DNA of 64,000 nt, from positions 47,103 to 111,102 of the IMG/VR virus record IMGVR_UViG_3300021431_000089; one strand, 5' to 3'. This DNA is from a virus. Its lineage: Duplodnaviria > Caudoviricetes. The notes beneath the pieces were generated by a model. That model was not told where the DNA came from. It saw only the letters and a program-made list of their open reading frames with translations, and did no database searches. A program made the position numbers and the translations under genes. Below, in pieces: positions 14,032 to 64,000 of this stretch. The first letter of the stretch is position 1; each line of letters starts with the position of its first letter.

Positions 14032-14105
14032 CCCCCTGTGGCCTAATGGTAAGGCAAGCGACTTTGACTCGCTACATATGGGTTCGACCCCCATCAGGGG
14101 TGCCA
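14032..14105 (+). tRNA. tRNA-Gln(UUG)
   Basis: Cloverleaf: acceptor CCCCTG/CAGGGG; D-arm GCC-TAATGGTAA-GGC; anticodon arm AGCGA-CT TTG AC-TCGCT; T-loop TTCGACC; encoded CCA. Confidence 0.92.
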
Positions 14106-30900: not shown

Positions 30901-33452
30901 CAACATGATCGCCAGAAATACTTTTTTCATTCTTTTTTCCTCTTTCCCTCAGAACAGTACGCAACTGGGCAATATATGTTAGATCCGTTCCCAAGGTTCC
31001 GCACCATCGTGTGCGTACAGCTGTGGTCATATTCACACTCACTGCACGGAACCAGTTCGAAGCTGTAACACATCTCTCTTTTGAATCTAGGAACCTGGTC
31101 TTCTGAAACTTTAACTGCGAAGTAGTGTAGATCACTCATTCTTCTTTCCTCTCTGCCCTATAGACTGTGTCTGTTGATGATGTAGCGTATGTCGGTATAA
31201 GCCTTGGGCATTTATCGCACTCCCCATCGCAGTACACATAGTCATTGCCACAAACTCTTACTTCACTCATTCTTCTTTCCTCTCTGACCAGTCGATTTTC
31301 TGACCGCAATGTGGACAATAATCATGCTGTTCACCTTCGATTTCATACGTCGCTCCGCATGATGGACATTCCCATGTATCGTAGACCAGAGACCCGTCTG
31401 CATAGCCATCTCCCCATACGTCCGGTATAATCGGAACTTGCTTTTTAAGGGCTTTGACCGCCTCATAAAGTGCTTCAGACGTATTGCCGAAGTGAGTACC
31501 ACCGTCAGCCATTACTATTTCAATCGCTTCTTTTGGTGTCATCTCTCTCTCCTTTTTGCGTTTCCGCAATACCAATTATCTGAAGGCATCCAGCTATAAA
31601 ACGGGTCATCGCACTGACACGGGCATACACCATCCGGGAATCGAAGGTTGAGCCTCCCTATCTCGTTTTCATATATTATGGCTGGTCTGTGCTCGCAATC
31701 TTTGCATCGGATCAGTTCCCGCAGATATCCCTGTGATTCCGCAGACACCTTTGTTTCGTTATCAAGGAAATCGTCGTTAATAATGTATTCAACCCTTGTC
31801 ATTCTTCTTTCCTCTCAGCCCACCAAATAAGCAATTCGTTGATTGCATCTTCCACTTCCTCGTAATAACGGATGCGCTCTTCGCTATTACTCTTGTCTTC
31901 AATTACCTTGTGTCGCTCATTTAACACAGCTTTAATCCAGTTGATAGGGATCGCATCGGCTTTCAATGCTCCGATAGCCACATCTAAGGCTTCCAGATAT
32001 GCTTTGCTGTATTGATATATTGAATCGTCTAAGATTTTGACCTCTTCAAGAATTTCGATAGCTTCGGACTTGTTCATTCTTCTTTCCACATTTTCTGAAT
32101 CGGGTACTAGCTCCTTAATTTGCGTCTGCATATCTGCTAGTTTTTTCAAATAATTTTCGTCTGTCATTCTTCTCTCCGCTCCGCTTTGGCAGATGTCGAT
32201 GATGCTGTCAAGCAATGCATTTGACGGCTCCCAATTCATGTACTTGCGATGACAGTCATCACATCCAATGGGGCCGTACTCATCTCTTGGGGCATCCGGT
32301 TCATTGTGTTTGCAGTTATAGCAGTAGATTCCGCACAGCTCCCACTGTAGTTTCTTTTTAATTTCTTCTCTGTCCATTATCGTTTACCATCCATTTTTGA
32401 CCCGCACCATGGACAATATGGCGTGACATTACCCCACGAATGTCCGCATTCGGAGCACTTCCGCATCATGTAGACAAACTCAGGAAACCCGACCTGCGAA
32501 TGAGGATCTTTCAACCATCTTCCGTGTCTGACAGGCTCCGCGTCAACAACGGGTTGATCGAGAGCAATGTTGAGCGCCTGATCGATTGTGTATAATTCAG
32601 CGAGCCTATGGTCATCGTCGACCGTCTCTCGATATTCTTTTAGATCCGCTAAGAACAGGTCTTGGTCAATTAAGTTTTTCATTCTGGTTCACCGTCCATC
32701 TTCGATCCGCACCAAGGGCAGTAGTCAGTTAGAAACTCATTTCCTTCTGCTTCCAGCGCATCAGCGCCACAAACTGAGCACTTCATGGCGATCACATAAG
32801 AAGGCTTACCGGCGAGCGTTCCCATTCTCGGAACCCATTTACCGTGTCTGACAGGCCCCGCATCAACTGTCGGCGCGTTTTTAAACCCGTCCAAACTTGT
32901 TCCATCCAGTTCTGACACAACCTGTTCAAGTACTTCTGCTACTGTGATATGTTCACCAAGTTCTAAATCCCTGTACTTGTGCTCGCTTATTGCATTTTTG
33001 ATAAATGTGGCAAACGCATCTGCATTAATCAATCTGGTCATCTTCATCAGCCTTATAGGGCTTTGGACACTTTGCCCACGCTGTAGCGATGCCGCCCCAC
33101 AAATCACCATCATCGTTCCACAAATGTTCATAAGCGTTCCACCTCAGCACGCACACTTCCGATTCATTCTCTGCCCATTTAATTGTCACGAGATAACGGT
33201 CGCTTTTCTCTGGCAAGTTTTTCTTGCATGGAATCCATTCAACATTATTCATTTGCATTACTCCTTCTCGATCACGAATATAGCTATTAAGATGACCGCA
33301 ACGGTGACCACGACGTCGACCATAGTTGGAAGTAAGACAAGCCACCACGACCAGTCAATGACATTACAGAGCTTCAGGCCGATAAGCAGAACCTGTAAAG
33401 CCCCACAAAATCCAATACCCGTTGAGGTATATGAAACTTTTTCTTTCTTCAT
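27994..33452 (-). other. Array of about 20 small coupled hypothetical ORFs, including a lipoprotein (30526-30930), several Zn-ribbon proteins and a DUF551-like ORF (33025-33258)
   Basis: Continuous ATGA/TAATG coupling; CxxC pairs; VDAEPVRHG.W paralogs (32377-32682, 32679-33041); lipobox MAGC at 30526-30930. Confidence 0.6.
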
Positions 33453-44635: not shown

Positions 44636-45012
44636 TAAAAGCCGCCCTGCTTAAGCATCATCTTAAACTCAGTAGCCTTCTGCTTGGCGCCAGCCTTAAC
44701 GCCATCGTTGTAACTGTCATCAATGCGACGCTGGATTTCGGCGGCAAGCTGTTCAACCGTTGCCAGTTTCAAGCTTGCAGCAACCTCTGCGGCTTCAACC
44801 TTCACGGACTTACGGTCTTCGACCCATTCAAGAAGGTCAGATTCCGTGATCAGATATGTATGGCCACGAGTCTTTCCCGGGACAGTAGACGCACGAAGGG
44901 TACCCTTCAATACAGCATTACGAAGCGTCTGTTCGGAGACGCCAGCGGTCTGTGCCGCAATACTCAGTTTTAAATACTTTTCAGACATGTTTTTTAATTT
45001 TTCCTCCCTCAT
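44635..45012 (-). CDS. MerR/excisionase-like HTH DNA-binding protein
   Basis: L...AA..AGVS.QTLR.....G.L.A...YLI...DL..W. Confidence 0.7.
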   Translation of the reverse strand: MREEKLKNMSEKYLKLSIAAQTAGVSEQTLRNAVLKGTLRASTVPGKTRGHTYLITESDLLEWVEDRKSVKVEAAEVAASLKLATVEQLAAEIQRRIDDSYNDGVKAGAKQKATEFKMMLKQGGF

Positions 45013-45038
45013 CTTTCCAAGTAAAAAACCCGACTTGT

Positions 45039-45341
45039 TTATTTGTAATCGGGCAGATCAACATCAATGTAGACATATTCCAGACTGATCGGCTTTTCTG
45101 CGCTCATGTTGACGTCTGGCGAAACCAGGTGCCCAGTATAAACCGCTTTTGCAATCGCCTCTGGCAAAGTAGATGGTTCAAGATAGAACTTTGACTTTAA
45201 AATCAGAGCCCTAGCTCGTTGCATTGCATCGTAAAGCGAGTCACCTTTCACGCTTCCCTTGAAGTCTGGTATGTAAAGTAAATAATCCGATCCATCTTTC
45301 GTTAAGATTGTTGGATAAACTGCGTGGATGATACCAATCAC
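45039..45341 (-). CDS. HicB-like antitoxin (orphan)
   Basis: YP.I......YL..IPDF.....G.SL.DA...AR..I; no HicA nearby. Confidence 0.7.
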   Translation of the reverse strand: MIGIIHAVYPTILTKDGSDYLLYIPDFKGSVKGDSLYDAMQRARALILKSKFYLEPSTLPEAIAKAVYTGHLVSPDVNMSAEKPISLEYVYIDVDLPDYK

Positions 45342-45351
45342 CTCCTACCTG

Positions 45352-45705
45352 CTAAAGTGTTATCTTATCGAGAAAAACCATCATACCCTCATAGCACACA
45401 ACCTCGCCATCTTTGAATACGAACCGCCACCCAGCAGGCCAGCTTGCATCCTCATCAATTACATAAGCGTCCTCGCCGTCGCATACATACGGTACAAACT
45501 CATTCAATAAATGGTGAACATTGCGGAGACAAGACATCACATCGTTCGTTTCTACAAGCCCCATAATGTCATATGTGTTGCTTTCTGGATCATAACCCCA
45601 TTCACTGAAGTAAGTCTCCCACGGTGCGTTGTCGAAATGCAGGTCGTCTGCAACAACCCCTTCGCGAACTTTCAGCGCGGCATCAATGCTTAATACATGA
45701 GACAT
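45352..45705 (-). CDS. Hypothetical acidic protein
   Basis: RBS present; in operon. Confidence 0.5.
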   Translation of the reverse strand: MSHVLSIDAALKVREGVVADDLHFDNAPWETYFSEWGYDPESNTYDIMGLVETNDVMSCLRNVHHLLNEFVPYVCDGEDAYVIDEDASWPAGWRFVFKDGEVVCYEGMMVFLDKITL

Positions 45706-45859
45706 AATTCATCAATCCTTTCCATTTCGAAAATACAATTTTCAAGATACTCAATCTGATAAGCGACGATTTCCAGTGGCAGGTGACTCGTTTTCAAATC
45801 ACGAATCGCCTGCTTGTAGCTTTCAATCATGTCATCCATACCTCTTTCCTTTCCGTTGC

Positions 45860-46053
45860 CACATGGCAAACTCCGTTTCCCGTGTGCGTACCTGGCTTTT
45901 AAACGAGCATCGACGATTTAACACCCTTTTAAATCGTCGATGTGAGTTTTAAAGTCAAGTACAGGCACTGATCGAAGAACAGATACCTTCTCGTTACTAT
46001 CGCTAACAGCGGTAGCTGCTGTGGTTAAAACGCCAAAGCTATATACCCATGTG
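45860..46053 (-). ncRNA. Retron-like msr-msd unit 4
   Basis: Terminal IR CACATGG (45860-66)/CCATGTG (46047-53); G at 46046 follows the 5' arm on - strand; core 45997-46016; long hairpin at about 45888-45962. Confidence 0.7.
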
Positions 46054-46058
46054 TGTTA

Positions 46059-46301
46059 AACCCTGATCCGGCACTTAATTCCCTAAGTAGAAATTAAGTG
46101 TGATTTTAAAAATCCGATCGCCCGATTCGGAGGGCTGATCGGATGGGGCGAAGCCCCTTAAATTTCCGCAGAGCGGAAATTTAAGGCTCATCCTTTCCCC
46201 GACAATGCATTTCTATCGCTAACAGCGGTAGCCAAACCAACAATTATGTAGATGTAAGAGAGGGAGAAAACCAGCTTGTTGGAATGAATTGCATCAGGGC
46301 T
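46059..46301 (-). ncRNA. Retron-like msr-msd unit 3
   Basis: Terminal IR CCCTGAT (46061-67)/ATCAGGG (46293-99); G at 46292 in TGCAATT; core 46213-46232 is 20/20 identical to unit 4; four consecutive hairpins. Confidence 0.72.
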
Positions 46302-46329
46302 ATCAAATTTAGTTATATACTCGATGTGT

Positions 46330-47982
46330 TCAAATATGTTCTTTATTTTTGTTCACAGATTCCGCAGTCTGCGATCTATATTTTGTCAATGCTTCGATTG
46401 CCATCTTATGTGCTGTGGAAGATCGACATGTTTTGAGATCATAAACTCTTTCCGCGCCGTAGTACGGACATTTTGTACAGTGTTCCGCCGAATCCGCGTC
46501 GGGCAGATAAGACTTCATACAATAAATCGCCTCGTCGATTGTCATTTCATTCATAAAACCTCACTTTTATTATCCTCTGACAATACCTTTATGTAGACAT
46601 TGCCGTCATTTCCATGCTCGTCGATTTCACGACAGGCCAGATAACCGACCTGCCCTTTAACTGTTCCCTCAATGCTGGTAACGACATCATCAAAAGATGT
46701 CTTACACATTTCCTCATATGAGAGAGGCGTTTCACACGCAATTTCGATTTTAAAATAGTTCATCATACCTCCTATTTATTAGCGGCTTTCGCCTTTGCCA
46801 GATCGACATAAATGTCGCAGTAAGTATCGTCGAAATAGTCATCGACCTTTTCAATAAACCACGGCTGTCTGGCAACGGTTTTGTATGCGTCATAGAAAAT
46901 CCAATTCTTTCCGCCGATTCTTGCATGCACATACAAGATGTTGTCATTTCCAACATACTTATTAAAAGTGTCGATCTGCTTTTTGACAGCGCGGCGATGT
47001 TGTTTGATCAGGAACTTGGCACGCTTACGGTTCTTGCCATGGACACGAGCCCAATTAACATCAACTGCCATATCGTCCTTGTAAATCAGATACTTTTTCA
47101 TAGCTGCTTTAGTTCTCAGACTGGACACATACCATCCATTACATGCCCATCTTGGATATGATCTGATCAAATCCTCAAGTAAAAAGCTGAAGCCCGAACC
47201 ATCATCGTACTCAGCTTTCTGTTCCTGCCCCATGAGTCGATACCCACGAAGTCTTGGAATATTAAGGTGAATGTTATTTTCATGCAGATATTTACTGATG
47301 TCTTCAATCTGCGCATACGCTCCCAAATCCATATAAACCCTCCTTTATTACATGCTTCTGAATTTGTAATAATACAGTACGTTCTCCATCTGAACGCAGA
47401 CTTCACCGGTAGTTTGTAGTGGCATATATTACCTCGCTTTCCTCATCCGTTTCGGTTTGCCATGCTTGAACAATGCGTGATGCCAATAACGATGGATGGT
47501 CAACACACCACCCTCACAGGTTGTATAGAATTCACAGTAGCGCCCCCTTCTGACCGGAACAGAAGGATCAATCTTCCACGCCCTACGGAATACTTCGAGA
47601 TTAATCATTAGCATTTGCGTATCCGTTATAGCGGATGACGTCCCCATGTTCGTCTATCTGAGTGTAAGACGCAAACCCAACCTCACCTTTAATTATCTGT
47701 TCCGTGTAGTCAATAACTGACTCTAAAAACACATCACACATTTCATCGTATGTAAGCGGACTCTCACATACCATTTCGATTTTGAAATAATTCATATTAC
47801 TTTGCCCTCCTCATTCTTTTCGGCTTGCGATGTTTATACAGCAGGTGATATGAATCGTTTGTGACCATAATCAATTCACCACAGTACCCGCTGAAGTAAC
47901 AATTGTTGTGCCGCAAGAGTCGATAATCCGGGCCATCATCGCCCTGCCGTTCGTAAATCAGTTTGTAAAGTCTCAAGTTCAT
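46330..47982 (-). other. Small hypothetical ORFs (46330-46554; 46551-46766 and 47601-47795 MNYFKIE paralogs; 46772-47332; 47429-47647 and 47797-47982 sharing a KH.KPKRMR C-terminus)
   Basis: Coupled ORFs with internal paralogy. Confidence 0.55.
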
Positions 47983-49691
47983 ATGCTTCCATCCTTATAT
48001 TTAAGAAGCGCGGATAAATCACCCGGCTCAATTCCATCCTCGACTAGCTCAAGTGCAAAATCAGGAAAGTACCAGTACCACTGCTCACCTTTTTCAAATT
48101 CGACTCGATATACACCGTGGAGAATTCCAATGCAGGCACTAGCGACCTCGCCGACTCTCCCTATATGATCATCATATGCCGGTATATATCCGACCCAATG
48201 CTTAATATTTGGAGTTACACGAACAATATCACCTTGTTGGAAAAAGACCATTCACAAGTTCACCCCACCAAAAAGCCCGGACAAATCGCCCGGCTCAATC
48301 TTGGTTTCGGCAAACTCAAGAACCCATTCTGGGAAATACCATAACGTTTCACCATCTTTAAAATCAATACGGCACAGATCCTTGCTAACTCCACCGCTGC
48401 TGGGGACAACTTCGCCAATCTCCCCGATATAGGCGTCAAGTTGGGGGACATACCCGCCCCATTCTCTTGAGCTCTTCATCACACGCACAAGATCACCCGC
48501 CATAAACTTGTTCATTATTTATACCCCCGTCCAAATTGCGAAACGAGATTCATAACAGACATCTCTGATGAGATTTCTTCAGCCGGTTCGTTTGCTACCA
48601 ATCGCAAATATTCATCTTTATAAAACCATTTGCCATCAATTCCTTCAAAACCACCGACTATAGCGTAAATAGTATCATCTATATCATCTTCAAAGCCAAC
48701 AACCTCGCCCGTGCAACCTACTGTTTTGTCCATACCGGGCACCCAGTACTCCCAATCGGAGCCATTGCGAACAACAGTTACCTTATCTCCAATCCAAAAC
48801 ATTGTCCTTGTCATCATAATTCACCTCCAACATTGCCGCTGAATAATTCTGTAAGATCACAGGTCGACTTAAAGCATGGCTCAAGGTTATCGTCGTAATA
48901 AGTCAATAATCGTTCGTCCCAGAACCACGGAGTCTCCCTGAGATGATACCCAAACGAACCGTTGGACGCCTGATCTCTATACTCTATTGTGTAAGTATTG
49001 CCGTCTCCGACATATTGGTTCATGTCACGATTCCAACCACCGGCGCATCTTTCCAGATCCTCTCCGCTGCCAACAATCTGTACCTTATCTCCACTGCGAA
49101 AAATCATTTGCCATCTCTCCTCACACTACGTTCCTGAGTCCATTGGAATAGATCGTTGATAGAAAATTCCGGTTCGACGCAATCATCAACAAGCTCAAGA
49201 CATCTTTCATCCCATTTGTAAGGGAACGGTGTCAGATACCAAGACGCGTCATGAAAGCAGCTCTCATCCTCAAAGAGATACCCCGGCCTCCCATCTGACA
49301 AGAGTCCCTTGGCAATTACGTAGACAGCACCATCGTTGACAAACTTACCCATTTTAGGGTCATTCCAACCGAATGCGCAGTCATACAAATCCTTGCCCGA
49401 TCTCGAGATCAAAACCTTGTCGCCCGGTTGAAACTTAAAAGCCCCAGCAGGCTCAAGTAATCTTTCATCCCAAACACAGTCAATTTCATCAAAGTAGTAT
49501 CCAACCCGTCCGTCTTCGTTTCCGTAATCAATATCTGAATCAGCATAATCAATATCGTAATCAGCAATTGTGTAAATGTTCCCGTCATTCACATATACAG
49601 ACATACCATCATCCCAACCGCCAAAACAATCTTCGAATTTGTCTCCACTGCGGGTAATACGAACCCTGTCTCCAATCTTAAATTTTGCCAT
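47979..49691 (-). CDS. Tandem array of five paralogous KOW/SH3-like small proteins (47979-48251, 48252-48515, 48515-48817, 48814-49107, 49104-49691 with two domains)
   Basis: Each begins F-x-x-G-D-x-V-x-(V/I), has a W(Y/F/V)(F/W)....L motif, and ends in an acidic DL..LF-type tail. Confidence 0.7.
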
Positions 49692-49712
49692 GATCTCTCC
49701 TTTCATCTATGC

Positions 49713-50068
49713 AATTCAAACTCTCATATAGTTTTACGCCTGAGCCCGCGGCCGGCGCCTCCATCGGGAAACTCACGTTCTGGTTTTTGCATCAAAAATC
49801 CCTGTATCGATATTCTTATTGGAATAAAAATATTCCAATTATGAATAATTGCGCCACAAAGTCTTATGTTTTTGGGATTTTGTTTTTCATAAAACCTTGA
49901 CCTCATTGCAGCTGTATGTTATGCATACACGCAGCAATTAACTCGTGGTTTTCGCTTCCGGCGACCTGCAGCGTGCCTCCTGCTCCCGGGTACTTTCATA
50001 CCCCAGCAAGTTGTTACTTTCGCTAACAGCAAAAGCTCATCTGAAAAGATGAAATTGCAGTTTGAATT
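49713..50068 (-). ncRNA. Retron-like msr-msd unit 2
   Basis: Terminal IR AATTCAAACT (49713-22)/AGTTTGAATT (50059-68); G at 50058 in TGCAATTT; hairpin; core 50007-50036 is 29/30 identical to unit 1. Confidence 0.78.
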
Positions 50069-50083
50069 ATTGATTAGTTACTT

Positions 50084-50467
50084 TTATTCATCATCAAAAA
50101 CAAAGGATACCGTATTGTAAAGTGGTAAGACCCAGATGTGTTCATCATCATACCCTTCGGTATCGATATAGAATTCCGTAAACATATAGCGGTCATCATT
50201 GTAATGATCATCACCGAGAGCGTCTCTCGTAAGCGCAATGGAGTTCGGGAACGCGTATGTGTCTAACCCATACACATAATAGTGAGCGATATGCGGATTG
50301 TGTGCGTCAATTTCGCCCCTGCTATATATAAAGTCAAATGCGAATTTACGACCATCCTTAAATGTAATCTCGTATCCACCCGGCGATGTCTTCAACCCGC
50401 CAGGTTTTAACGGTTTGTCATGCCATATGTCAAATTTCATACCATACAGTCTTGCACTTTTTTCCAC
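50084..50467 (-). CDS. Hypothetical protein
   Basis: AGGAGG RBS; GTG start. Confidence 0.55.
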   Translation of the reverse strand: MEKSARLYGMKFDIWHDKPLKPGGLKTSPGGYEITFKDGRKFAFDFIYSRGEIDAHNPHIAHYYVYGLDTYAFPNSIALTRDALGDDHYNDDRYMFTEFYIDTEGYDDEHIWVLPLYNTVSFVFDDE

Positions 50468-50478
50468 CTGATTACCTC

Positions 50479-50808
50479 CTAATCAAAGAACCCATCGTCT
50501 TCAAGTTTGTGCGCAAGCTTATCGATAAGCCGCCACACATCACCCAGGCCGACGGGGTTCCATTTACCCTCTTCTTTCTTCCAAAATTCGAGCGTGCTGC
50601 GTGGATCTAGCATTTCGAGGTAATGCAATACACCCCGCCATCCTTCATGAGGAAGTTTGATGGCGACCTCGGAGTCGATTTCAAAGTCGCGATCAATATA
50701 ATTGTAGATATTGTTCTCTCTTAAGAAGTTATCGAACCCGTAGTCATTGCAGAATTCGGCAATGTCATAGATATCCTTTACATCAGCATAAAACTCACCT
50801 TTATTCAT
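50479..50808 (-). CDS. Hypothetical protein, paralog of the N-terminal domain of 53653-54255
   Basis: Shared EF.....D..D...FC.D...D ... W ... E.W......W ... L..DGFF. Confidence 0.6.
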   Translation of the reverse strand: MNKGEFYADVKDIYDIAEFCNDYGFDNFLRENNIYNYIDRDFEIDSEVAIKLPHEGWRGVLHYLEMLDPRSTLEFWKKEEGKWNPVGLGDVWRLIDKLAHKLEDDGFFD

Positions 50809-51014
50809 AAACGTCCCCTCTGCTTGTAAAACCCGAAGGAATCAATAGAACCATTGCAGACGAAGTTTACATCGCCATCCGCAGTATCAAATCTCAAATG
50901 GGTTTCCGATACGGCGATATAAACTATGTTAGTGAACCGTATAGCCCTGTCCTCACTCTTAAATTTAAGGTCAAGGCCGTATGGGCCGCCTTTAAATTCC
51001 TGAACCATATTCAC
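50805..51014 (-). CDS. Hypothetical protein immediately downstream of RT
   Basis: Coupled ORF, 69 aa. Confidence 0.5.
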   Translation of the reverse strand: MNMVQEFKGGPYGLDLKFKSEDRAIRFTNIVYIAVSETHLRFDTADGDVNFVCNGSIDSFGFYKQRGRL

Positions 51015-51017
51015 CCC

Positions 51018-52181
51018 CTAGCACTGGCTTGCCGCCTTAATATCTGCACGAAGGCAAGCCTCAACATTGACATTGAACTTATCACTGAGCTTCTTAATAA
51101 TCCCGTTGATAGTTTCTTTTTCAACCATCCGACAATAGGAAATATTTCCCTGCAAGACCTGAAGATCGCCGAGTTCCCAAGCAATTCCATGCTCTCTGTC
51201 TTTCACATATGACGTAATTGCAGCTTTCAGTTCACGTTTCCGTTTGCTACCGACCGTGATCTGATTGTCTTTATTGAGCATTACGCCGAGATTCCAATTC
51301 TGCCCGGCGCTTGAACCATACCTTGTCTTCTCTGCATTCAACCGATACGGGGCTTCAAATTCTGCAAGAACCTTATTGATCTCAGATTCCACTTCCCTGT
51401 AATCGAAACCATACTCAGAAGACACGAGGAAATCATCAGCATATCTCGTATAAACCAAACGCTGTTTCTTAAACTGATGGAGACGCTTGTTCAGTTCGTG
51501 ATCGATCGGCATCATAACGATGTTCGTCAGTAACGGACTCAACTGTGTTCCCTGCGGCAGACCGCCGTCCAAAAACCCGAGCTCTATAGCTTTCATTAAT
51601 GCCGGTCTTCCGGCGGTGTCTTCCATAATCATGTTGAATGGGTAGATGATACTTAACTGTTTAACGACAAACTCAAAAGTCGTATTGCCAAAGAAGTTTG
51701 ACAAATCATACTTGCCAAACCAGCGACTTTTATTTGCCTGATGTCTTTTCACAGAGTCAATATGCGACCTGCGCTTTATGTAAGCAAACGCTGTAGTGTG
51801 ATACAGCGGAATATCGTAGCACTGTAAGATCCCCTTTAACTCTATCAGCGCATTGGAAAGCTGCTCATTCGGTGCATCGATTTTGCGATACCCGTGAGAT
51901 CTTTTGGGGATGTAGAATGTTCTATAAAGCCTGTGACGATCGCCATCAAACAGTTCTGCATATTTTCTATTGAACGACTGTAACAATCCGATCATCGTGT
52001 TGATGTCAACGCCAACCCTTTCGGACATTCTACGGGATATTTTATCCTTGTCGATACGATAAGTGATGGTGTTTGTTCCGTTGCGATTTGTGTAGTGGAA
52101 ATTTACTTTACCCGAGAACAACTCCTCAAGTGTCATTCTGTGAACGACATATTTAGGAGCCGGTGTTGCTACATAAATCAT
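51018..52181 (-). CDS. Retron-type reverse transcriptase (387 aa)
   Basis: YRTFYIPKRS.G.R.I.AP; AFAY; SVKRH (region X variant); DLSNFF; LPQGTQLSP.LTN; YTRYADD; N.EKT; NLGV (VTG variant). Start placed at 52181 by the GGAAAGGAG RBS. Confidence 0.9.
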   Translation of the reverse strand: MIYVATPAPKYVVHRMTLEELFSGKVNFHYTNRNGTNTITYRIDKDKISRRMSERVGVDINTMIGLLQSFNRKYAELFDGDRHRLYRTFYIPKRSHGYRKIDAPNEQLSNALIELKGILQCYDIPLYHTTAFAYIKRRSHIDSVKRHQANKSRWFGKYDLSNFFGNTTFEFVVKQLSIIYPFNMIMEDTAGRPALMKAIELGFLDGGLPQGTQLSPLLTNIVMMPIDHELNKRLHQFKKQRLVYTRYADDFLVSSEYGFDYREVESEINKVLAEFEAPYRLNAEKTRYGSSAGQNWNLGVMLNKDNQITVGSKRKRELKAAITSYVKDREHGIAWELGDLQVLQGNISYCRMVEKETINGIIKKLSDKFNVNVEACLRADIKAASQC

Positions 52182-52203
52182 GATCTTCTCCTTTCCATTC
52201 ATT

Positions 52204-52505
52204 AACCCAATCTCATTCATTTTCCTGCTGCGACTCGCCGAGTCGTCTGGCTTGATCCGCCGGAATTTCGCGGTTGCGAAGCTGGTCGAAATGCCTACCA
52301 AGGAATATCTGATATATAATTCTCTGATTTTTTATCTTGTTCGAGGGTGTTTGGTCGGCGTGCCGTCTTTTTCAGGAAGTTCAGCCCGTGCAGGCGCATG
52401 TTCCGGACATCCTCCAGGGCACATACCCGTCCTCCATCTTCGATCAAGTTGTTACTTTCGCTGACAGCAAAAGCCCTATATGAAATATAGAAATTGCATT
52501 GGGTT
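52204..52505 (-). ncRNA. Retron-like msr-msd unit 1 (directly upstream of RT)
   Basis: Terminal IR AACCCAAT (52204-11)/ATTGGGTT (52498-505); G at 52497 in TGCAATTT; hairpin CTATAT-TTC-ATATAG; core 52445-52474. Confidence 0.82.
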
Positions 52506-52534
52506 TTAAAAGGCTGGTAAACCAACCTTAAACA

Positions 52535-52756
52535 TTACTTATTCTGCTTTTCGGCAAGCGGAACACACTTCTGTAAAGCCATGATGACATCTTTCAGCTC
52601 ATCTGAACCGACAATCCAGATATGCTGATCGGGGCCGCATTCATCATTCGCGTCGCAGATGGCTACATCTCCATCCGCATACTGCAATACTGTCAGTGTT
52701 CTGCCAACACTTTTAGTTTTCAGAAATTCTGTTGCGTCAAGTCTAAAATCCATCAT
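52535..52756 (-). CDS. Hypothetical protein
   Basis: AGGAGG RBS. Confidence 0.55.
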   Translation of the reverse strand: MMDFRLDATEFLKTKSVGRTLTVLQYADGDVAICDANDECGPDQHIWIVGSDELKDVIMALQKCVPLAEKQNK

Positions 52757-52775
52757 TACCTCCTATTTGACTCAA

Positions 52776-53450
52776 TCAAAATGCATCCAGTGTGAAGTGA
52801 AAGCCATCTACAATGGCGAACTTTTTGATTTCACCATTCTTCACGAAGTTGATAAAGTTGTTCACGCCGAGGGCGCAAACAAGCCTGACTGTTGTGGCAA
52901 CACCAAGCGTTACACCACAGGCAGAAACCGGTGTGTCCACATCCGCCTCGTCGGCGGTAAAATCCATGGAGTTCAACAGGTTCTGTTTCATTGCGACATC
53001 GCTCCAGTCTGCGGCATAATGCTGTGCAACTTCGAGCTCTGTTCTGAAATCAAACACCGCTTTTACCATCGGTGAGTTGAAGTGCTTCTTGACGAAATCC
53101 CTGCGGACATCGATTGAATCTGGGCACAGGAATACATAACCCGTAAGAAGTTTCCCTGTCCATCCTTCGGGCTTCGTCTGTACCTTCTCACATTCCGGGT
53201 TAATCTCACACAGGATTTCCTTCAAGGCATCAACCTTCGGCATACCCACATGACGCTGGAAGAACATCTGGTTAACAATGTTCTTCGGTTCAACCTTGTC
53301 GAAATCGTAGAGAACCATATCGGTGACCCCACATCTTGCGAGATTCTCAGCCAGCACTGAGCCGACTGAGCCGCAACCGATGATATGTACTTTGCCTTTG
53401 ATACTTGCCGGATCGAAATACTCTCTTGACTTTGATAAATCCATCTCCAT
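52776..53450 (-). CDS. ThiF/E1-like adenylyltransferase
   Basis: GCGSVGS, DFDKVE.KN..NQ, G.PKV.A, D....R, C-terminal SACG Cys; start MEMD after an AGGAGG RBS. Confidence 0.88.
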   Translation of the reverse strand: MEMDLSKSREYFDPASIKGKVHIIGCGSVGSVLAENLARCGVTDMVLYDFDKVEPKNIVNQMFFQRHVGMPKVDALKEILCEINPECEKVQTKPEGWTGKLLTGYVFLCPDSIDVRRDFVKKHFNSPMVKAVFDFRTELEVAQHYAADWSDVAMKQNLLNSMDFTADEADVDTPVSACGVTLGVATTVRLVCALGVNNFINFVKNGEIKKFAIVDGFHFTLDAF

Positions 53451-53652
53451 GATCGTTCCTCCTTTATTTATGATCTTTGTTTTCTTTAAGGCGTTGCATC
53501 TCTTCAATAAACCTGTCGTAGAGATAGTCAAACTTCGCATTGCTGAATGGCGTAGAAGAGATACTTTCGAGCAACCCAAAAGCCATTTGAGCAAGACTCA
53601 CGGCGCTCTTCGCTGGTCTCTCAGACCAATGCTCTATCATTTGGCTATACCC

Positions 53653-54255
53653 TTACCGCAAAACCGCAGAGAGATCCCCTGCGGTTAAGCGATTGCTTTC
53701 TTCGATGATTTTTCTGAATTCCTCATCAGCCTTCACGCTTGCATCATGTGCCGCACGGAGCTTTGCAAGGTTCATCGCAACCACCGTGTCGTATTGCGGA
53801 ACACCCTGCATTGAACTCAAGATTCCGCTGAAGTCGCCCGGCTCCAGATGGTCTTCCTCTGTGAAAGGATCTTCAATGTCGAGCAGGGGGCACTGTTCTT
53901 CGCCGTCATTATCCTCGTCCTCTGATCCATCTTCGAAGAAACCGTCATTATCGAGATACTCAAGCAGTTCGTTCTTCATATATTCGAATTCCGAATCATC
54001 AATGCCGACCCAGTCTCCGTAGTCGTCACGGCGCCAGTATTCATAGGTGCCCTGATCAGCAAGAGAGTTCAGAGTATCCTTGATATCGTACCAAGAATCG
54101 TACGAAACCGTTTCAGAGAGCCAGTCATTGATATACTCATCGCGTGCTTCGTCACTGTAGATGCATTCAGCGTGGCCATCATAGTTGTTGTCGAAACAGA
54201 AGTTCAAAAAATCACTTACATCTTCGATGTTGTCGATAAATTCCTGTCGATACAT
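53653..54255 (-). CDS. Highly acidic hypothetical protein within the Ubl cassette
   Basis: D/E-rich; AAAGGAG RBS; EPGDFSGIL and AGDLSAVL motifs. Confidence 0.65.
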   Translation of the reverse strand: MYRQEFIDNIEDVSDFLNFCFDNNYDGHAECIYSDEARDEYINDWLSETVSYDSWYDIKDTLNSLADQGTYEYWRRDDYGDWVGIDDSEFEYMKNELLEYLDNDGFFEDGSEDEDNDGEEQCPLLDIEDPFTEEDHLEPGDFSGILSSMQGVPQYDTVVAMNLAKLRAAHDASVKADEEFRKIIEESNRLTAGDLSAVLR

Positions 54256-54278
54256 AAAATTCTCCTTTCGTTATTTAT

Positions 54279-55088
54279 TTAGTCTTCCCATTCGGGATAA
54301 TTTGCTGCATAAGATTTTCCTGTGCCGACACCGTAGTACCCATATCCACCGTAAGGTTCATAGGTCGGATACCCACGATGATCCACATATGTAACGCCGC
54401 CATAATTTGGCTGTTTGGCGGCGACCGGCTTCGGCTTGCTTACCTTGACCATATCCTCTGCATCCGAGATAAATTCCATAAGCCCATCCGGTCTCCACTT
54501 AATATCGACATCCTTGGATTCGTAGAGGACATTGTCCTCAAGATCGTAGATGTTCATCCAACAATCCCCCTTACGATTCCATATTGAGAAGATGTAGAAC
54601 TGATTCGGCATGCCCTTCTGCAGATCACCGAGCCAGTCCTCATACATGGTCTTATCAACACTGGATGGTGAGGCCGTCATGTCAACATGTGAATGCCCGT
54701 GGAATCTGATGTTGTTGAATTCCTCATCAGGTCTCTGATAGAGCCACATATCAAATTCCTCTTTGTTTGTGTTTACCGTAGACCCAGTGACTTCCTGGGG
54801 ATAAACCATGATCCCATAAACCTCATAGCGACTCGCATATTCCTCATTGGGCTCGACCTTGCGAGCGAGGCAGTGCCAGCCGACCTCTTTGTCGGTGCAC
54901 GCAATAAGCGTTTTCATCTTTGCGAACGTGTCGCCATCGAAAACGACCTCTGCCTTCTTATCGATTTTGCCGAGGTCTTTCTCAAATTTAAATTTCCCGT
55001 CAGCCGCCTTGATACTTGCCAGCTTCTTTTCAAACTCTTCGCGAAGCTCTTTAATTTCGGCCTCGCCGACCATGATCCTTTTAGCCAT
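54279..55088 (-). CDS. JAB/JAMM (MPN+) metallo-isopeptidase
   Basis: E (KEVGW)...H-S-H-x7-S-x2-D (HSHVDMTASPSSVD), an exact JAMM motif. Confidence 0.85.
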   Translation of the reverse strand: MAKRIMVGEAEIKELREEFEKKLASIKAADGKFKFEKDLGKIDKKAEVVFDGDTFAKMKTLIACTDKEVGWHCLARKVEPNEEYASRYEVYGIMVYPQEVTGSTVNTNKEEFDMWLYQRPDEEFNNIRFHGHSHVDMTASPSSVDKTMYEDWLGDLQKGMPNQFYIFSIWNRKGDCWMNIYDLEDNVLYESKDVDIKWRPDGLMEFISDAEDMVKVSKPKPVAAKQPNYGGVTYVDHRGYPTYEPYGGYGYYGVGTGKSYAANYPEWED

Positions 55089-55107
55089 TCGTTTTCCTCT
55101 CTTTCTT

Positions 55108-56628
55108 CTATTCTTCCTCGTCAAGATATTTCAGCGCTCCTTCGATTGTTACCTCGGAACCATCCGGCAGAACAATACACTTCCTTGTATTGTAATTCGA
55201 AGCCAGATCAGACACCAATTCTCTGGTGACTGTTGAATCGAAGAAGTTCATAGTAGCGTTAGATGCCACACACTGATCTACAACACCCATCCAGTTACCA
55301 TCTGTGATATACTGCATCATCGTTTTCGCATAATCTCCGATGCACCCATGGTGGTAGATATGAGGATTTGGGAAGTAATCCTCAAACCCTGTTGGATCTG
55401 ACACGCCACTCAGTGCATGAACCTCGACATCTCTGACGGAAATTCTGTACGGCGCACACACTTTCAAGCGGAGACTCTCATCAATGAAAATCGCCTTTAA
55501 CAGCTTCGCAATTTTGCCTTCGAGTTTTGTGCCCGCAGAAGCTGAATAAATGTACGATCTGCGATTATCGATCAGCTCCTGCAATTGATCCGAATCATAA
55601 TATTCGAATAACCCATGACACAGGATTTCCATGGTACCCGTGCCGAATTCACGCACGTCAACCGAATCATTGTTTCTGATATATTCGGCGAATTCACCCG
55701 TCTGAGTGTTTTCCACGGCGAGTTCCAAGCCAGCAATGTATACAAGCTTTTCATTTACAGATCGTGTATACCTTCCGATTTCATCCATATACTCCTGAAT
55801 TCGACGTCTGATATCTGAAACCTCAGACTGTGCACGATCAATCTGATTACGCTGTGCGGAGACAAGGAAATCCTTGAGCCTCGAATCGACGTATGTTTCT
55901 TCAAACCCGAGCTGATCGGCAAATTCCTTCAGTAAAGACAGGTATCCATCCTTGTCTACTGAGTTCAGCTTTTCGAGCAGATTCAAAGACTCTCTATCAA
56001 GAGAGATAGACCCATCTGAACCCGCCCAATACCAGGGCATCAGCATCGGGATAACCGCCTGCAACCAATGAAACTTCTGATTATTTAATCTCGATGTAAT
56101 AACCATCGAGATTCTTTTTTCAGCATCTGTGAAAGCATACACTCCGAACTTTACACCGAAGAAGTATGTGATACTCGGCTGGTACTCCAGTTTAATCGGA
56201 ATCTCTTCACCAGTCCGTGATGTTACCGTTCCGCAATCAAAAACCGTACCGGCTGGGAGAAGATTACCATCTGATTTATCAAGGCCAAGGAAATTTTCGA
56301 GACCCTGTTTCAATACATCTGGCGCAGATCCCGTTTCGATAAACTCGAGACAACTGTCTACGCTGTTGTCTCTGCATCGCGCATACAGTCTTCTTATGCG
56401 ATAAGGGATATTTGATTCCTCCACAGGAGAACCGGTCTGCACTCCGAGAACCCTAACCTGTTCCCCGGAAACCTTTTTGTACAGCAGAAACCTCAGAGTC
56501 GCCAAAAGCGATTCATCAGATGTTGATCTTTCATCCGACAATTCAATACCAAGCGGATGTTCGGTGTTGAAAAACCAGCCTGCGGCCGGTGTAGTCAACG
56601 CTGTGTAGTTAATCCTGTCATTCCACAT
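55108..56628 (-). CDS. Large protein with coiled coil and C-terminal prokaryotic E2-like domain
   Basis: FPNPHIYHHGCIGDY resembles the E2 HP(N/H)...CLG active site; lies between Ubl and JAB. Confidence 0.6.
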   Translation of the reverse strand: MWNDRINYTALTTPAAGWFFNTEHPLGIELSDERSTSDESLLATLRFLLYKKVSGEQVRVLGVQTGSPVEESNIPYRIRRLYARCRDNSVDSCLEFIETGSAPDVLKQGLENFLGLDKSDGNLLPAGTVFDCGTVTSRTGEEIPIKLEYQPSITYFFGVKFGVYAFTDAEKRISMVITSRLNNQKFHWLQAVIPMLMPWYWAGSDGSISLDRESLNLLEKLNSVDKDGYLSLLKEFADQLGFEETYVDSRLKDFLVSAQRNQIDRAQSEVSDIRRRIQEYMDEIGRYTRSVNEKLVYIAGLELAVENTQTGEFAEYIRNNDSVDVREFGTGTMEILCHGLFEYYDSDQLQELIDNRRSYIYSASAGTKLEGKIAKLLKAIFIDESLRLKVCAPYRISVRDVEVHALSGVSDPTGFEDYFPNPHIYHHGCIGDYAKTMMQYITDGNWMGVVDQCVASNATMNFFDSTVTRELVSDLASNYNTRKCIVLPDGSEVTIEGALKYLDEEE

Positions 56629-58412: not shown

Positions 58413-58679
58413 CTAAAACCTCTCCTTGAAAACTTTTGTAAATTTGAACACCGGAGTAATCCCTGCGCTCTTGATTACTACCTCACCCTGCGGAGAAACA
58501 AGTCTCCGTTTCTTTAAATGTTTGCAACTGAAAATCCCGAAATTATTGAGCACAATCCGGCCCCCATTCGAGACTTCCTCAGTGATAATATCGAGGGTTT
58601 CTTCAAAAACTCTCGATAGCAAGACCTGTGTCAAACCCGTTCTACGGGACAGCTCCTGCATGAATTCTTTTTTTGTCAT
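58413..58679 (-). CDS. HU/IHF-like DNA-binding protein
   Basis: MTKKEF..ELS..TGL.....I...V..G..I.L.NFG.F....K.R...P.G......P.FK. Confidence 0.8.
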   Translation of the reverse strand: MTKKEFMQELSRRTGLTQVLLSRVFEETLDIITEEVSNGGRIVLNNFGIFSCKHLKKRRLVSPQGEVVIKSAGITPVFKFTKVFKERF

Positions 58680-60496: not shown

Positions 60497-60850
60497 TCAT
60501 GCTACCGTACCGAGTGAGTGATACCCGATAACCTTTTCACCATCGTAGACAGGTTCTGCAGGATACAGGAAATCCCGTCTCCACGGGAAGGCGTAGGCAA
60601 TCGCCTCGGGGACAATGTAGTAAACCCCAGGAGTTTCAAAATACAACTCCTCATCCGCCATTTCCCCTGTGAGTATAGGGTAACCACGCTGTGTGCGGGT
60701 GATGTAAATCCCGTCAATATTCCCGACCTCGTACGGTTCGGAATGCATGAGCATTTCCCGTCCGCTCGGCATATATGTGTGACCTTTGACGCACTCGTCG
60801 TCAAGAAAAACCCGCACTGGTGCGGGCGTACAGTTAATCATTTTTGCCAT
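60497..60850 (-). CDS. Hypothetical early protein, paralog A
   Basis: Colinear with 61500-61853 (N.TP..VRVFLD, HTYMPSG, PGVYYIV, R.D.L.PAE). Confidence 0.7.
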   Translation of the reverse strand: MAKMINCTPAPVRVFLDDECVKGHTYMPSGREMLMHSEPYEVGNIDGIYITRTQRGYPILTGEMADEELYFETPGVYYIVPEAIAYAFPWRRDFLYPAEPVYDGEKVIGYHSLGTVA

Positions 60851-61499
60851 AAAACCCTCATTTTGCCGGGATCATAATCGTATGACCATCGCCACGGTTG
60901 AGGGCAAGAGCCCCTGAAGAAACCCGTCCTGTAATGTTGATGCGGTCGAAGGCGTCACATTCGTCTAAGTAGGCGATGTAATTTCCCTCGTTGTCGTAGA
61001 CACGAGAAACCCGTGTCTTTAGGTACGCAGCAATGCTGTTTACCTTTTTTTCAAATTCCTGAAAATTCATGATCTGTTCTCCTTTTCCAGAGAAGGATTA
61101 TCAAGGTCAGAAAGGCGGGAGAAAGACCCTTGATAACCCTTCTCAAGAAAGGAGCCGGCACCGAGCAAGCAAAAACCCGGTGCCGGAGGAGCGGTGATAA
61201 AAAACCGTCAGGCGACGATTTCGACAGAGCCAAAGGGCCCAAAAGATGCCTTTAACCCATGCTCATATTTGAAAAGCTGACGGCGGAAGAAAAGCCGATT
61301 GCCGACGGTATTAGAAACATTTTCGGCATACAGCTTGCAAATTTCCATTGTGTACGTCTTGATGATTTCAGCGGGAGAAAGACCCTTGATGTCAATTTCC
61401 CGCACATCGTTGACGGGTTCGATATACCAGCAGCCCTCGGAATCGAGACATTCCTGAGCCCCGTTCAGCGTTTTTATGATAATTTTCATTAACCCTCCT

Positions 61500-61853
61500 C
61501 TATGAAATAGTGCCGAGCGATCGGCACCCGATGATTTTCCCGTCAGAGTCCCTGACCTGCTCGGCAGGGACTAATAAATCCTTGCGATGTGGTAAAGCCT
61601 GGGCGACCATTGCGGAAACGATGTAGTAAACCCCAGGAGCTTCAAAGTACAACTCCTCAGAAACCCCATCAGCAACGATGACAGGATTCCCGTAGATAGT
61701 GCGGGTAATCGGAACGCCATCGATTTCCCCAACCTTGTAGGTTTCGGATTCTAAGCGGATAGATTTCCCGCTCGGCATGTAGGTGTGAACGTTGACGCCC
61801 TCGGCGTCAAGAAAAACCCGCACTACATGCGGGGTCATATTGATTACCTTCAT
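61500..61853 (-). CDS. Hypothetical early protein, paralog B
   Basis: See paralog A. Confidence 0.7.
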   Translation of the reverse strand: MKVINMTPHVVRVFLDAEGVNVHTYMPSGKSIRLESETYKVGEIDGVPITRTIYGNPVIVADGVSEELYFEAPGVYYIVSAMVAQALPHRKDLLVPAEQVRDSDGKIIGCRSLGTIS

Positions 61854-63873: not shown

Positions 63874-64000
63874 CTTTTTTTCTGTACATCTATACATCGG
63901 TGCTTGTGGGGTATGTACAGCTTTTTTTCTGTACATCTATACATCGGTGCTTGTGGGGTATGTACAGCTTTTTTTCTGTACATCTATACATCGGTGCTTG
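63874..64000. repeat. 47-bp perfect tandem repeat, at least 2.7 copies, running off the window
   Basis: Unit CTTTTTTTCTGTACATCTATACATCGGTGCTTGTGGGGTATGTACAG at 63874, 63921 and 63968; internal IR CTGTACAT/ATGTACAG. Confidence 0.9.

Follow-up and report, generated by a model that had tools for sequence, protein, structure and literature searches.

Unit 3, an interval on the minus strand of a ruminant-gut phage genome (46301-46059), has the layout of a complete retron-style non-coding RNA. By analogy with known retrons it would act in trans as a template for a retron-like system carried by the phage and be copied into a four-hairpin, RNA-linked single-stranded DNA, a reading to which we give a probability of about 0.58. 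The window analyzed here, a stretch of 64,000 nt, is part of a 111-kb IMG/VR virus record. Retron DNAs are sensors or antitoxins in bacterial defence, and their single- or double-hairpin template is encoded beside the reverse transcriptase (RT).

A sequence-only reading of this DNA had described four consecutive hairpins on the + strand, and inspection of the sequence found all four inverted repeats exactly where it had placed them:

46072-46100, read on the + strand: hairpin A, CACTTAATT (46072-46080) pairing with AATTAAGTG (46092-46100), 9 bp as DNA
46112-46144, read on the + strand: hairpin B, ATCCGATC (46112-46119) pairing with GATCGGAT (46137-46144)
46145-46157, read on the + strand: hairpin C, GGGGC-GAA-GCCCC, which includes the mini-hairpin GCGAAGC in the cDNA (+) sense
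46158-46184, read on the + strand: hairpin D, TTAAATTTCCGC (46158-46169) pairing with GCGGAAATTTAA (46173-46184)

Hairpin B is made up of 8 + 4 bp with an inner GCCC/GGGC stem and a bulged T at 46136, hairpin D has a perfect 12-bp stem and a 3-nt loop, and hairpins B, C and D abut one another with no spacer between them. The comparison of DNA and RNA folding that the same reading had proposed gave significant values for both. Folded as + strand DNA, the interval 46059-46301 reached -48.1 kcal/mol compared to -27.1 +/- 3.7 for shuffled versions (z -5.63), with 0 of 200 shuffles folding as well, while as minus strand RNA it reached -93.6 kcal/mol compared to -64.6 +/- 4.5 (z -6.50). The 134-nt cargo of unit 3, which contains all four hairpins, gave a z of -5.9 when folded by itself as RNA. 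The four-hairpin observation is confirmed and lies well beyond chance.

The stem of hairpin B also forms a double-stranded GATC site (46116-46119 and 46137-46140) that is without counterpart in the corresponding hairpin of L058, another ruminant-gut phage contig. GATC methylation of msDNA is a known retron trigger in bacteria. In the window as well as in L058, a conserved CGGGG beside hairpin D (46196-46205) can pair with the CCCC of hairpin C (46145-46157); a two-state switch in unit 3 is possible, since the RNA minimum-energy fold takes this alternative pairing.

Unit 3 belongs to a set of four, as a 30-nt motif occurs four times on one strand, that of the RT gene (minus), once in each of the following units:

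52204-52505, minus strand: unit 1, a cassette directly upstream of the RT gene
49712-50069, minus strand: unit 2, a cassette downstream of the RT gene
46059-46301, minus strand: unit 3, with the four-hairpin cargo
45860-46056, minus strand: unit 4, in tandem with unit 3, with a1 CACAUGG, hp1, an hp2 identical to that of unit 3, and a2 CCAUGUG

Read in the RNA sense, every unit follows the same plan, in which a1, a G, about 6 nt, the hairpins hp1 and hp2, a short box and a purine-rich segment are followed by a variable cargo, a G and a2. Unit 1 is the only one contiguous with the RT gene. The 20-nt hp2 is exactly duplicated between units 3 and 4. A fifth match to the core in the genome (record position 31317) was without the stem and was dismissed as chance. 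The hp2 core is found, together with an outer stem that covaries, in every unit of this phage and of related phages. Forms of the outer stem include CUUUU/GAAAG, CUUCU/GGAAG, CUACC/GAUAG, CUGUU/GACAG and UCCGC/CGGAG, and all hits of a covariance model of the handle (R1) in the window and related phages fell on the RT strand (45 of 45).

A reverse complement of the 8-12 nt that immediately precede the anchor G lies 110-310 nt downstream, and the sequence of these arms is unique to each unit. When a1 was compared over 8 nt in a matched-versus-mismatched test, it agreed with the 3' part of its own unit at a mean of 7.8 of 8 positions and with that of other units at 4.5. The a1/a2 arms were unit-specific in all 19 units. 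An unanchored wide-window search for these arms had been swamped by chance 8-mers, a difficulty that was solved by anchoring on the conserved G. Each of the 19 units has a G before a2, a condition not imposed by the search, as well as a G after a1, a condition that the search did impose. The end-closing a1/a2 arms, the G and the handle are hallmarks of retron non-coding RNA as defined in PMC7736814 and PMC10849725.

The interval of unit 3 runs exactly from a2 to a1 and, outside its cargo, comprises the following elements:

46291-46299, minus strand: a1 (RNA AGCCCUGAU), 5' arm of the stem that closes the unit, pairing with 46060-46068
46203-46289, minus strand: the msr-like handle, consisting of CAAUUC, hp1 and hp2
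46185-46202, minus strand: the linker from handle to cargo, the 3' part of a conserved purine-rich UGCAUUGYCGGGGARA
46060-46068, minus strand: a2 (RNA AUCAGGGUU), 3' arm of the stem that closes the unit

The G at 46290 directly after a1 is the candidate branching G, and the G at 46069 directly before a2 is the predicted first template base. Within the handle, whose site in unit 3 is matched by model R1 on the RT strand, hp1 is a long hairpin (CCAACAA...UUGUUGG, about 46238-46282) and hp2 is GCUACCGCUGUUAGCGAUAG (46213-46232) with the invariant core GCUGUUAGC (GCUGUYAGC). The UGCAUUGYCGGGGARA segment is conserved in L058, hp2 is followed by comparable purine-rich segments in other units, and the linker at 46185-46202 is a candidate stop region of reverse transcription. 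The minus strand carries the RT gene and every handle motif, so that the + strand is the cDNA sense, as the sequence-only reading had claimed. Its template geometry held up equally well: the unit is a retron-style msr-msd on the RT strand, and the predicted cDNA, at most about 134 nt long, would cover all four hairpins.

Units 1-4 were without a match at gathering scores to Rfam (release 15, 4227 families), and no family was matched over 45700-52700 at E <= 5 either. A megablast of 45000-53600 against phage sequences in GenBank likewise gave no match. Two metatranscriptome runs of the source sample contained next to none of the sequence words searched for, and no RNA run was among the public runs listed as containing them.

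The enzyme that would use these templates is encoded as follows:

51018-52181, minus strand: retron-type RT, 387 aa from the ATG at 52181, the only RT in the 111-kb record, the sequence covered by the search for handle units

Its open frame spans 51018-52301, and the ATG at 52181, preceded by the ribosome-binding site GGAAAGGAG, is the likely true start. The protein matched Pfam RVT_1 (4.6e-16), PADLOC RT_II-A (5e-42) and NCBIfam retron_St85_RT (6e-47, 160 bits, under the curated cut-off of 235), its best PDB matches were the retron RTs Ec78 and Ec83, and its active-site box is YADD. Retron RTs are recognized by the motif NAXXH in region X and the triplet VTG in region Y (PMC7736814). In the alignment to the Ec78 RT, NAAAH stands against SVKRH and VTG against NLG, with just the H and the G, the most conserved residues, kept. 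The RT has 55 relatives in phage contigs, and at the loci of the closer ones the core motif occurs 1-4 times, always on the RT strand. Two other assignments of the RT were dropped, a DGR because no TR/VR pair was found and a group II intron because no intron RNA was matched, the best matches of the enzyme being retron RTs in either case.

About 4.7 kb and roughly a dozen genes separate the end of unit 3 (46301) from the end of the RT gene (51018), and unit 3 itself sits between two minus strand gene blocks. The small proteins neighbouring units 3 and 4 belonged to no informative family, except for one excisionase-like HTH protein. Directly upstream of unit 1 and the RT gene, on the same strand, lies a ubiquitin-like conjugation cassette (52776-56628); besides large proteins without annotation, it encodes a ThiF/E1-like protein (52776-53594) and a protein with a weak JAB-like match (54279-55124). 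The phage HU that the sequence-only reading had named at 58413-58679 (minus strand) is indeed an HU-type DNA-binding protein (Pfam Bac_DNA_binding, 2e-17). The window also contains a paralogous small-gene array at 48766-49685 with 37-nt repeats at 48766, 49068 and 49649, a second small-gene array at 60585-61824 with 57-69-nt repeats 1006 nt apart (60585/61591 and 60762/61768), a 47-nt unit in three exact tandem copies that runs off the window end (63874-64000), and a phage-encoded tRNA-Gln (anticodon UUG) at 14032-14105 on the + strand.

An exact-word scan identified a homologue of unit 3 in L058, which carries the same tandem of units 3 and 4. Two further candidates from two exact-pattern scans, L059 and L060, were rejected as not homologous, and L058 is the sole true homologue found, as these two have merely the seed word in common. 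Sequence divergence from L058 amounts to about 30%, yet the structure is retained. At two pairs of the a1/a2 stem both bases have changed with full pairing kept (C-G to U-A, and U-A to C-G), the hp2 outer stem has turned from CUACC/GAUAG to CUUUU/GGAAG, and all four cargo hairpins recur at corresponding positions on stems that differ largely in sequence. Hairpin A has 12 bp of other sequence, hairpin B has 11 + 5 bp of unrelated sequence followed by a U-rich run, and hairpin D has a different stem with CCGAAGG at its apex in the + sense. In hairpin C the stem is kept and the loop has changed from GAA to GTA in the cDNA sense (GGGGC-GTA-GCCCC), giving a GCGTAGC that still fits GCGNAGC. Rather than lacking conservation in a homologous unit, the hairpins have thus been maintained through compensatory changes. 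No RT was found in the L058 record, but this fragment is 76% complete and ends 3.2 kb from the unit, so that an RT would fall outside it and the negative result does not speak for absence. The phage with the closest RT (L003) carries a unit resembling unit 3 with a two-hairpin cargo, then a unit resembling unit 4 and the same downstream gene start.

Variation within the cargo was also analyzed in assembled contigs of sheep and cattle gut metagenomes aligned to the region. Substitutions were seen at 13 cargo positions, of which ten lay in loops, the bulge or linkers and three in stems, two of the latter creating wobble pairs. With stems making up 57% of the cargo positions, this avoidance of stems corresponds to p ~0.014 in a binomial calculated by hand. 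Hairpin C was invariant in three metagenome variants, and the changes in hairpin B fell at its loop and bulge. In variant X3 the loop of hairpin D (46170-46172) was exactly inverted from AGA to TCT with the stem unchanged. Such a loop inversion is a signature of a palindrome flip at the DNA level. Together, the sequence comparisons show the plan of the RNA, along with its conservation and its covariation, and they show that the four stems are under purifying selection. What the finding adds is that a defined multi-hairpin layout of a cargo can persist from one phage to another as the sequences of its stems are replaced.

Cargos across the family fell into a weakly structured class with z near 0 and a strongly structured class with z of -3.4 to -10, the latter including those of units 3 and 4. 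Unit 4 carries one long hairpin, the classical form. Multi-hairpin cargos were found in several other units of this phage family as well and are not unique to unit 3. The RT-adjacent cargos of what we term class A (units U1, L006a, L007a/b/d and L013a) are rich in C and A and have almost no structure as RNA (z near 0). Folding is better for the complements, which form many G-T pairs, and this strand asymmetry is opposite to what a structured RNA would lead one to expect. The apex of the unit 4 cargo (45896-45947) was swapped for 71 unrelated letters in the sheep/cattle gut variant X3, with the flanks still aligned, and variant X2 had several insertions at the same apex. By this pattern the unit 4 cargo behaves like an exchangeable cassette.

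The sequence-only reading had placed selection on the unit 3 structure at the DNA level. The stems are under purifying selection, but selection on DNA rather than RNA is only a possibility, as perfect Watson-Crick stems fold equally well as RNA. The folding energy of the unit 3 cargo was alike in sense and antisense, with no asymmetry, and single mismatches in cargo stems were evenly split between G-U (2) and A-C (2), few counts for 19 cargos. GNA triloops were found five times in the cDNA sense and once in the RNA sense among 29 triloop hairpins, a difference that is not significant, and only the unit 3 pair was closed by C-G. That GCGAAGC is an extra-stable DNA mini-hairpin is, as that reading had stated, established (PMC13037366). 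The mini-hairpins d(GCGNAGC) and d(GCGNNAGC) of Hirao and colleagues, reviewed in PMC13037366, are reported there to be nuclease-resistant, to bind SSB poorly and to occur at phage ssDNA priming sites and in hairpin promoters. Hairpin C would form a stable stem in RNA too, since three extra G-C pairs flank the motif in the genome. Sequence hints for the DNA sense come from the fit of both GCGAAGC and GCGTAGC to GCGNAGC, from the CCGAAGG at the apex of hairpin D in L058, and from three variant changes that would be G-T in the + sense and C-A mismatches in RNA. On the RNA side, the modelled hairpin A would reach 12 bp in the RNA sense through three extra pairs, two of them G-U, and hairpin B is followed in the RNA sense by UUUUUAAAAUC, so that, with a U-run after this hairpin in both phages, the sequence hints at an intrinsic terminator.

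These hints bear directly on how the unit should be explained. The rather unlikely alternative that it functions as RNA only, either binding the RT or, placed between two operons, providing a terminator, an attenuator or a stability element, with no DNA copy or one of hairpin A only, draws on the equal significance of the RNA and DNA folds, on the RNA-specific pairs of hairpin A, on the terminator-like hairpin B, and on the position between two minus strand gene blocks, where a search found no sigma-70-like promoter of the unit's own. Against it stand the covariation of a1/a2 across 230 nt together with the invariant G before a2, which only fit a full-length retron priming geometry; the three variant changes would be mismatches in RNA, and the triloops UUC and UAC are not known as stable RNA motifs, their complements being stable DNA motifs (PMC13037366). 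Another explanation is an element of the genomic DNA that is independent of the RT and at work in the phage chromosome or in intermediates of its replication, be it an origin, a hairpin promoter, a site for a primase or for single-strand initiation, or cruciforms that bind protein. Points in its favour are the occurrence of GCGNAGC and CCGAAGG mini-hairpins at phage ssDNA priming sites, ssiA and N4 hairpin promoters (PMC13037366), CCGAAGG in the + sense of L058, a loop inversion that is typical of DNA palindromes, and the HU protein encoded by the phage. This explanation is nevertheless improbable, as the hairpins lie precisely within a unit in which no handle feature of the RT-associated RNAs is missing, are enclosed by an a1/a2 stem whose covariation a DNA site would not need, and occupy a position that holds unrelated cargos in the other units.

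That the hairpins are chance palindromes or the remains of a decayed, functionless duplicate cassette seems very hard to credit: the exact hp2 duplication does suggest a recent duplication of units 3 and 4, but none of the 200 shuffles folded as well, the structure was maintained despite about 30% divergence in L058, and natural variants avoid the stems. The reading of unit 3 as a template has points counting against it, namely an RT in which NAXXH and VTG are not kept exactly and whose score falls short of the curated cut-offs for retrons, and the distance of the unit from the RT gene, which would make its use in trans putative.

For unit 3 as a template, the following course is proposed. The RNA would be transcribed from the minus strand and closed by a1/a2, and would present the shared handle (hp1 and the hp2 core GCUGUYAGC) to the distant RT, which by analogy with retrons may prime from the 2'-OH of the G after a1. 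Copying of the cargo would begin at the G before a2 (46069), 3 nt ahead of hairpin A, and the cDNA would run in the + sense through hairpins A, B, C and D toward the purine-rich segment near 46185-46202. Many transcripts might stop short of hairpin A and a2 because a U-run follows hairpin B in both phages. The predicted product is an RNA-linked ssDNA of about 115-135 nt in the + sense, starting at about 46069, and would fold into four stem-loops, three of them abutting and one a GCGNAGC mini-hairpin. Reverse transcription on unit 3, its stop site, and folded DNA rather than RNA as the active form are what we infer.

What such a DNA might do is a matter of conjecture. As a guess, it may serve in infection as a structured ligand or scaffold resistant to nucleases and SSB. 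The role of a decoy mimicking a junction or cruciform, which the sequence-only reading proposed, is speculation, and the properties of mini-hairpins described in PMC13037366 suggest a stable scaffold or a priming signal as alternatives to it. A doubtful wider version would have one retron-like RT and several trans templates supply a panel of small DNAs, with unit 3 giving a compact, GCGNAGC-centred four-hairpin DNA effector during infection, either a priming signal or a decoy or scaffold for host proteins that sense ssDNA or structured DNA. In that version it would be the first case in nature of an msDNA that serves a virus instead of acting against one.

In RT sequence the phage system is closest to the retrons Ec78/Eco7 and Ec83 (type I-A) and to the St85/Sen2 family. 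Similar to classical retrons, it has a probable retron-clade RT with YADD, inverted a1/a2 repeats that close the non-coding RNA, a G directly after a1, and a structured template adjoining a2; hp1 and hp2 correspond to the one to three short msr stem-loops of these elements. In contrast to them, it has one RT for four cassettes, of which unit 3 is remote, putatively used in trans and encoded by a gene not contiguous with that of the RT. It also differs in its altered NAXXH and VTG motifs, a non-coding RNA without an Rfam match, and a large-phage carrier in which it lies beside a ubiquitin-like conjugation operon without a recognizable toxin effector. The classical msd folds as a single or double long hairpin (PMC7736814, PMC8632793), whereas the msd of unit 3 consists of four separate hairpins, three of them abutting. 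The sequence-only reading had called classical msDNA a single hairpin, which is slightly too strict, as Mestre et al. 2020 allow a double one (PMC7736814), although the difference from unit 3 stands. Hairpin C resembles the described GCGNAGC mini-hairpins (GCGAAGC here and GCGTAGC in L058, both in the cDNA sense) but would, unlike them, be carried on reverse-transcribed DNA. On these sequence features unit 3 is classed as a variant that probably works like a retron msr-msd. A search of the literature found no paper describing a phage retron with several template RNAs.

The interest of unit 3 derives mostly from the multi-template system to which it belongs and from a precise, testable prediction of a four-hairpin msDNA. 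The phage carries an RT and four separate templates, one of which keeps a four-hairpin plan under selection, and this plan includes a motif whose exceptional stability is confined to DNA. With the length and fold of its product predicted to the nucleotide, the unit lends itself to a clean test. Should this DNA be made, viruses would use reverse-transcribed structured DNA for their own ends. It would also be a natural case of one retron RT serving several trans templates, with direct use for multiplexed retron engineering.
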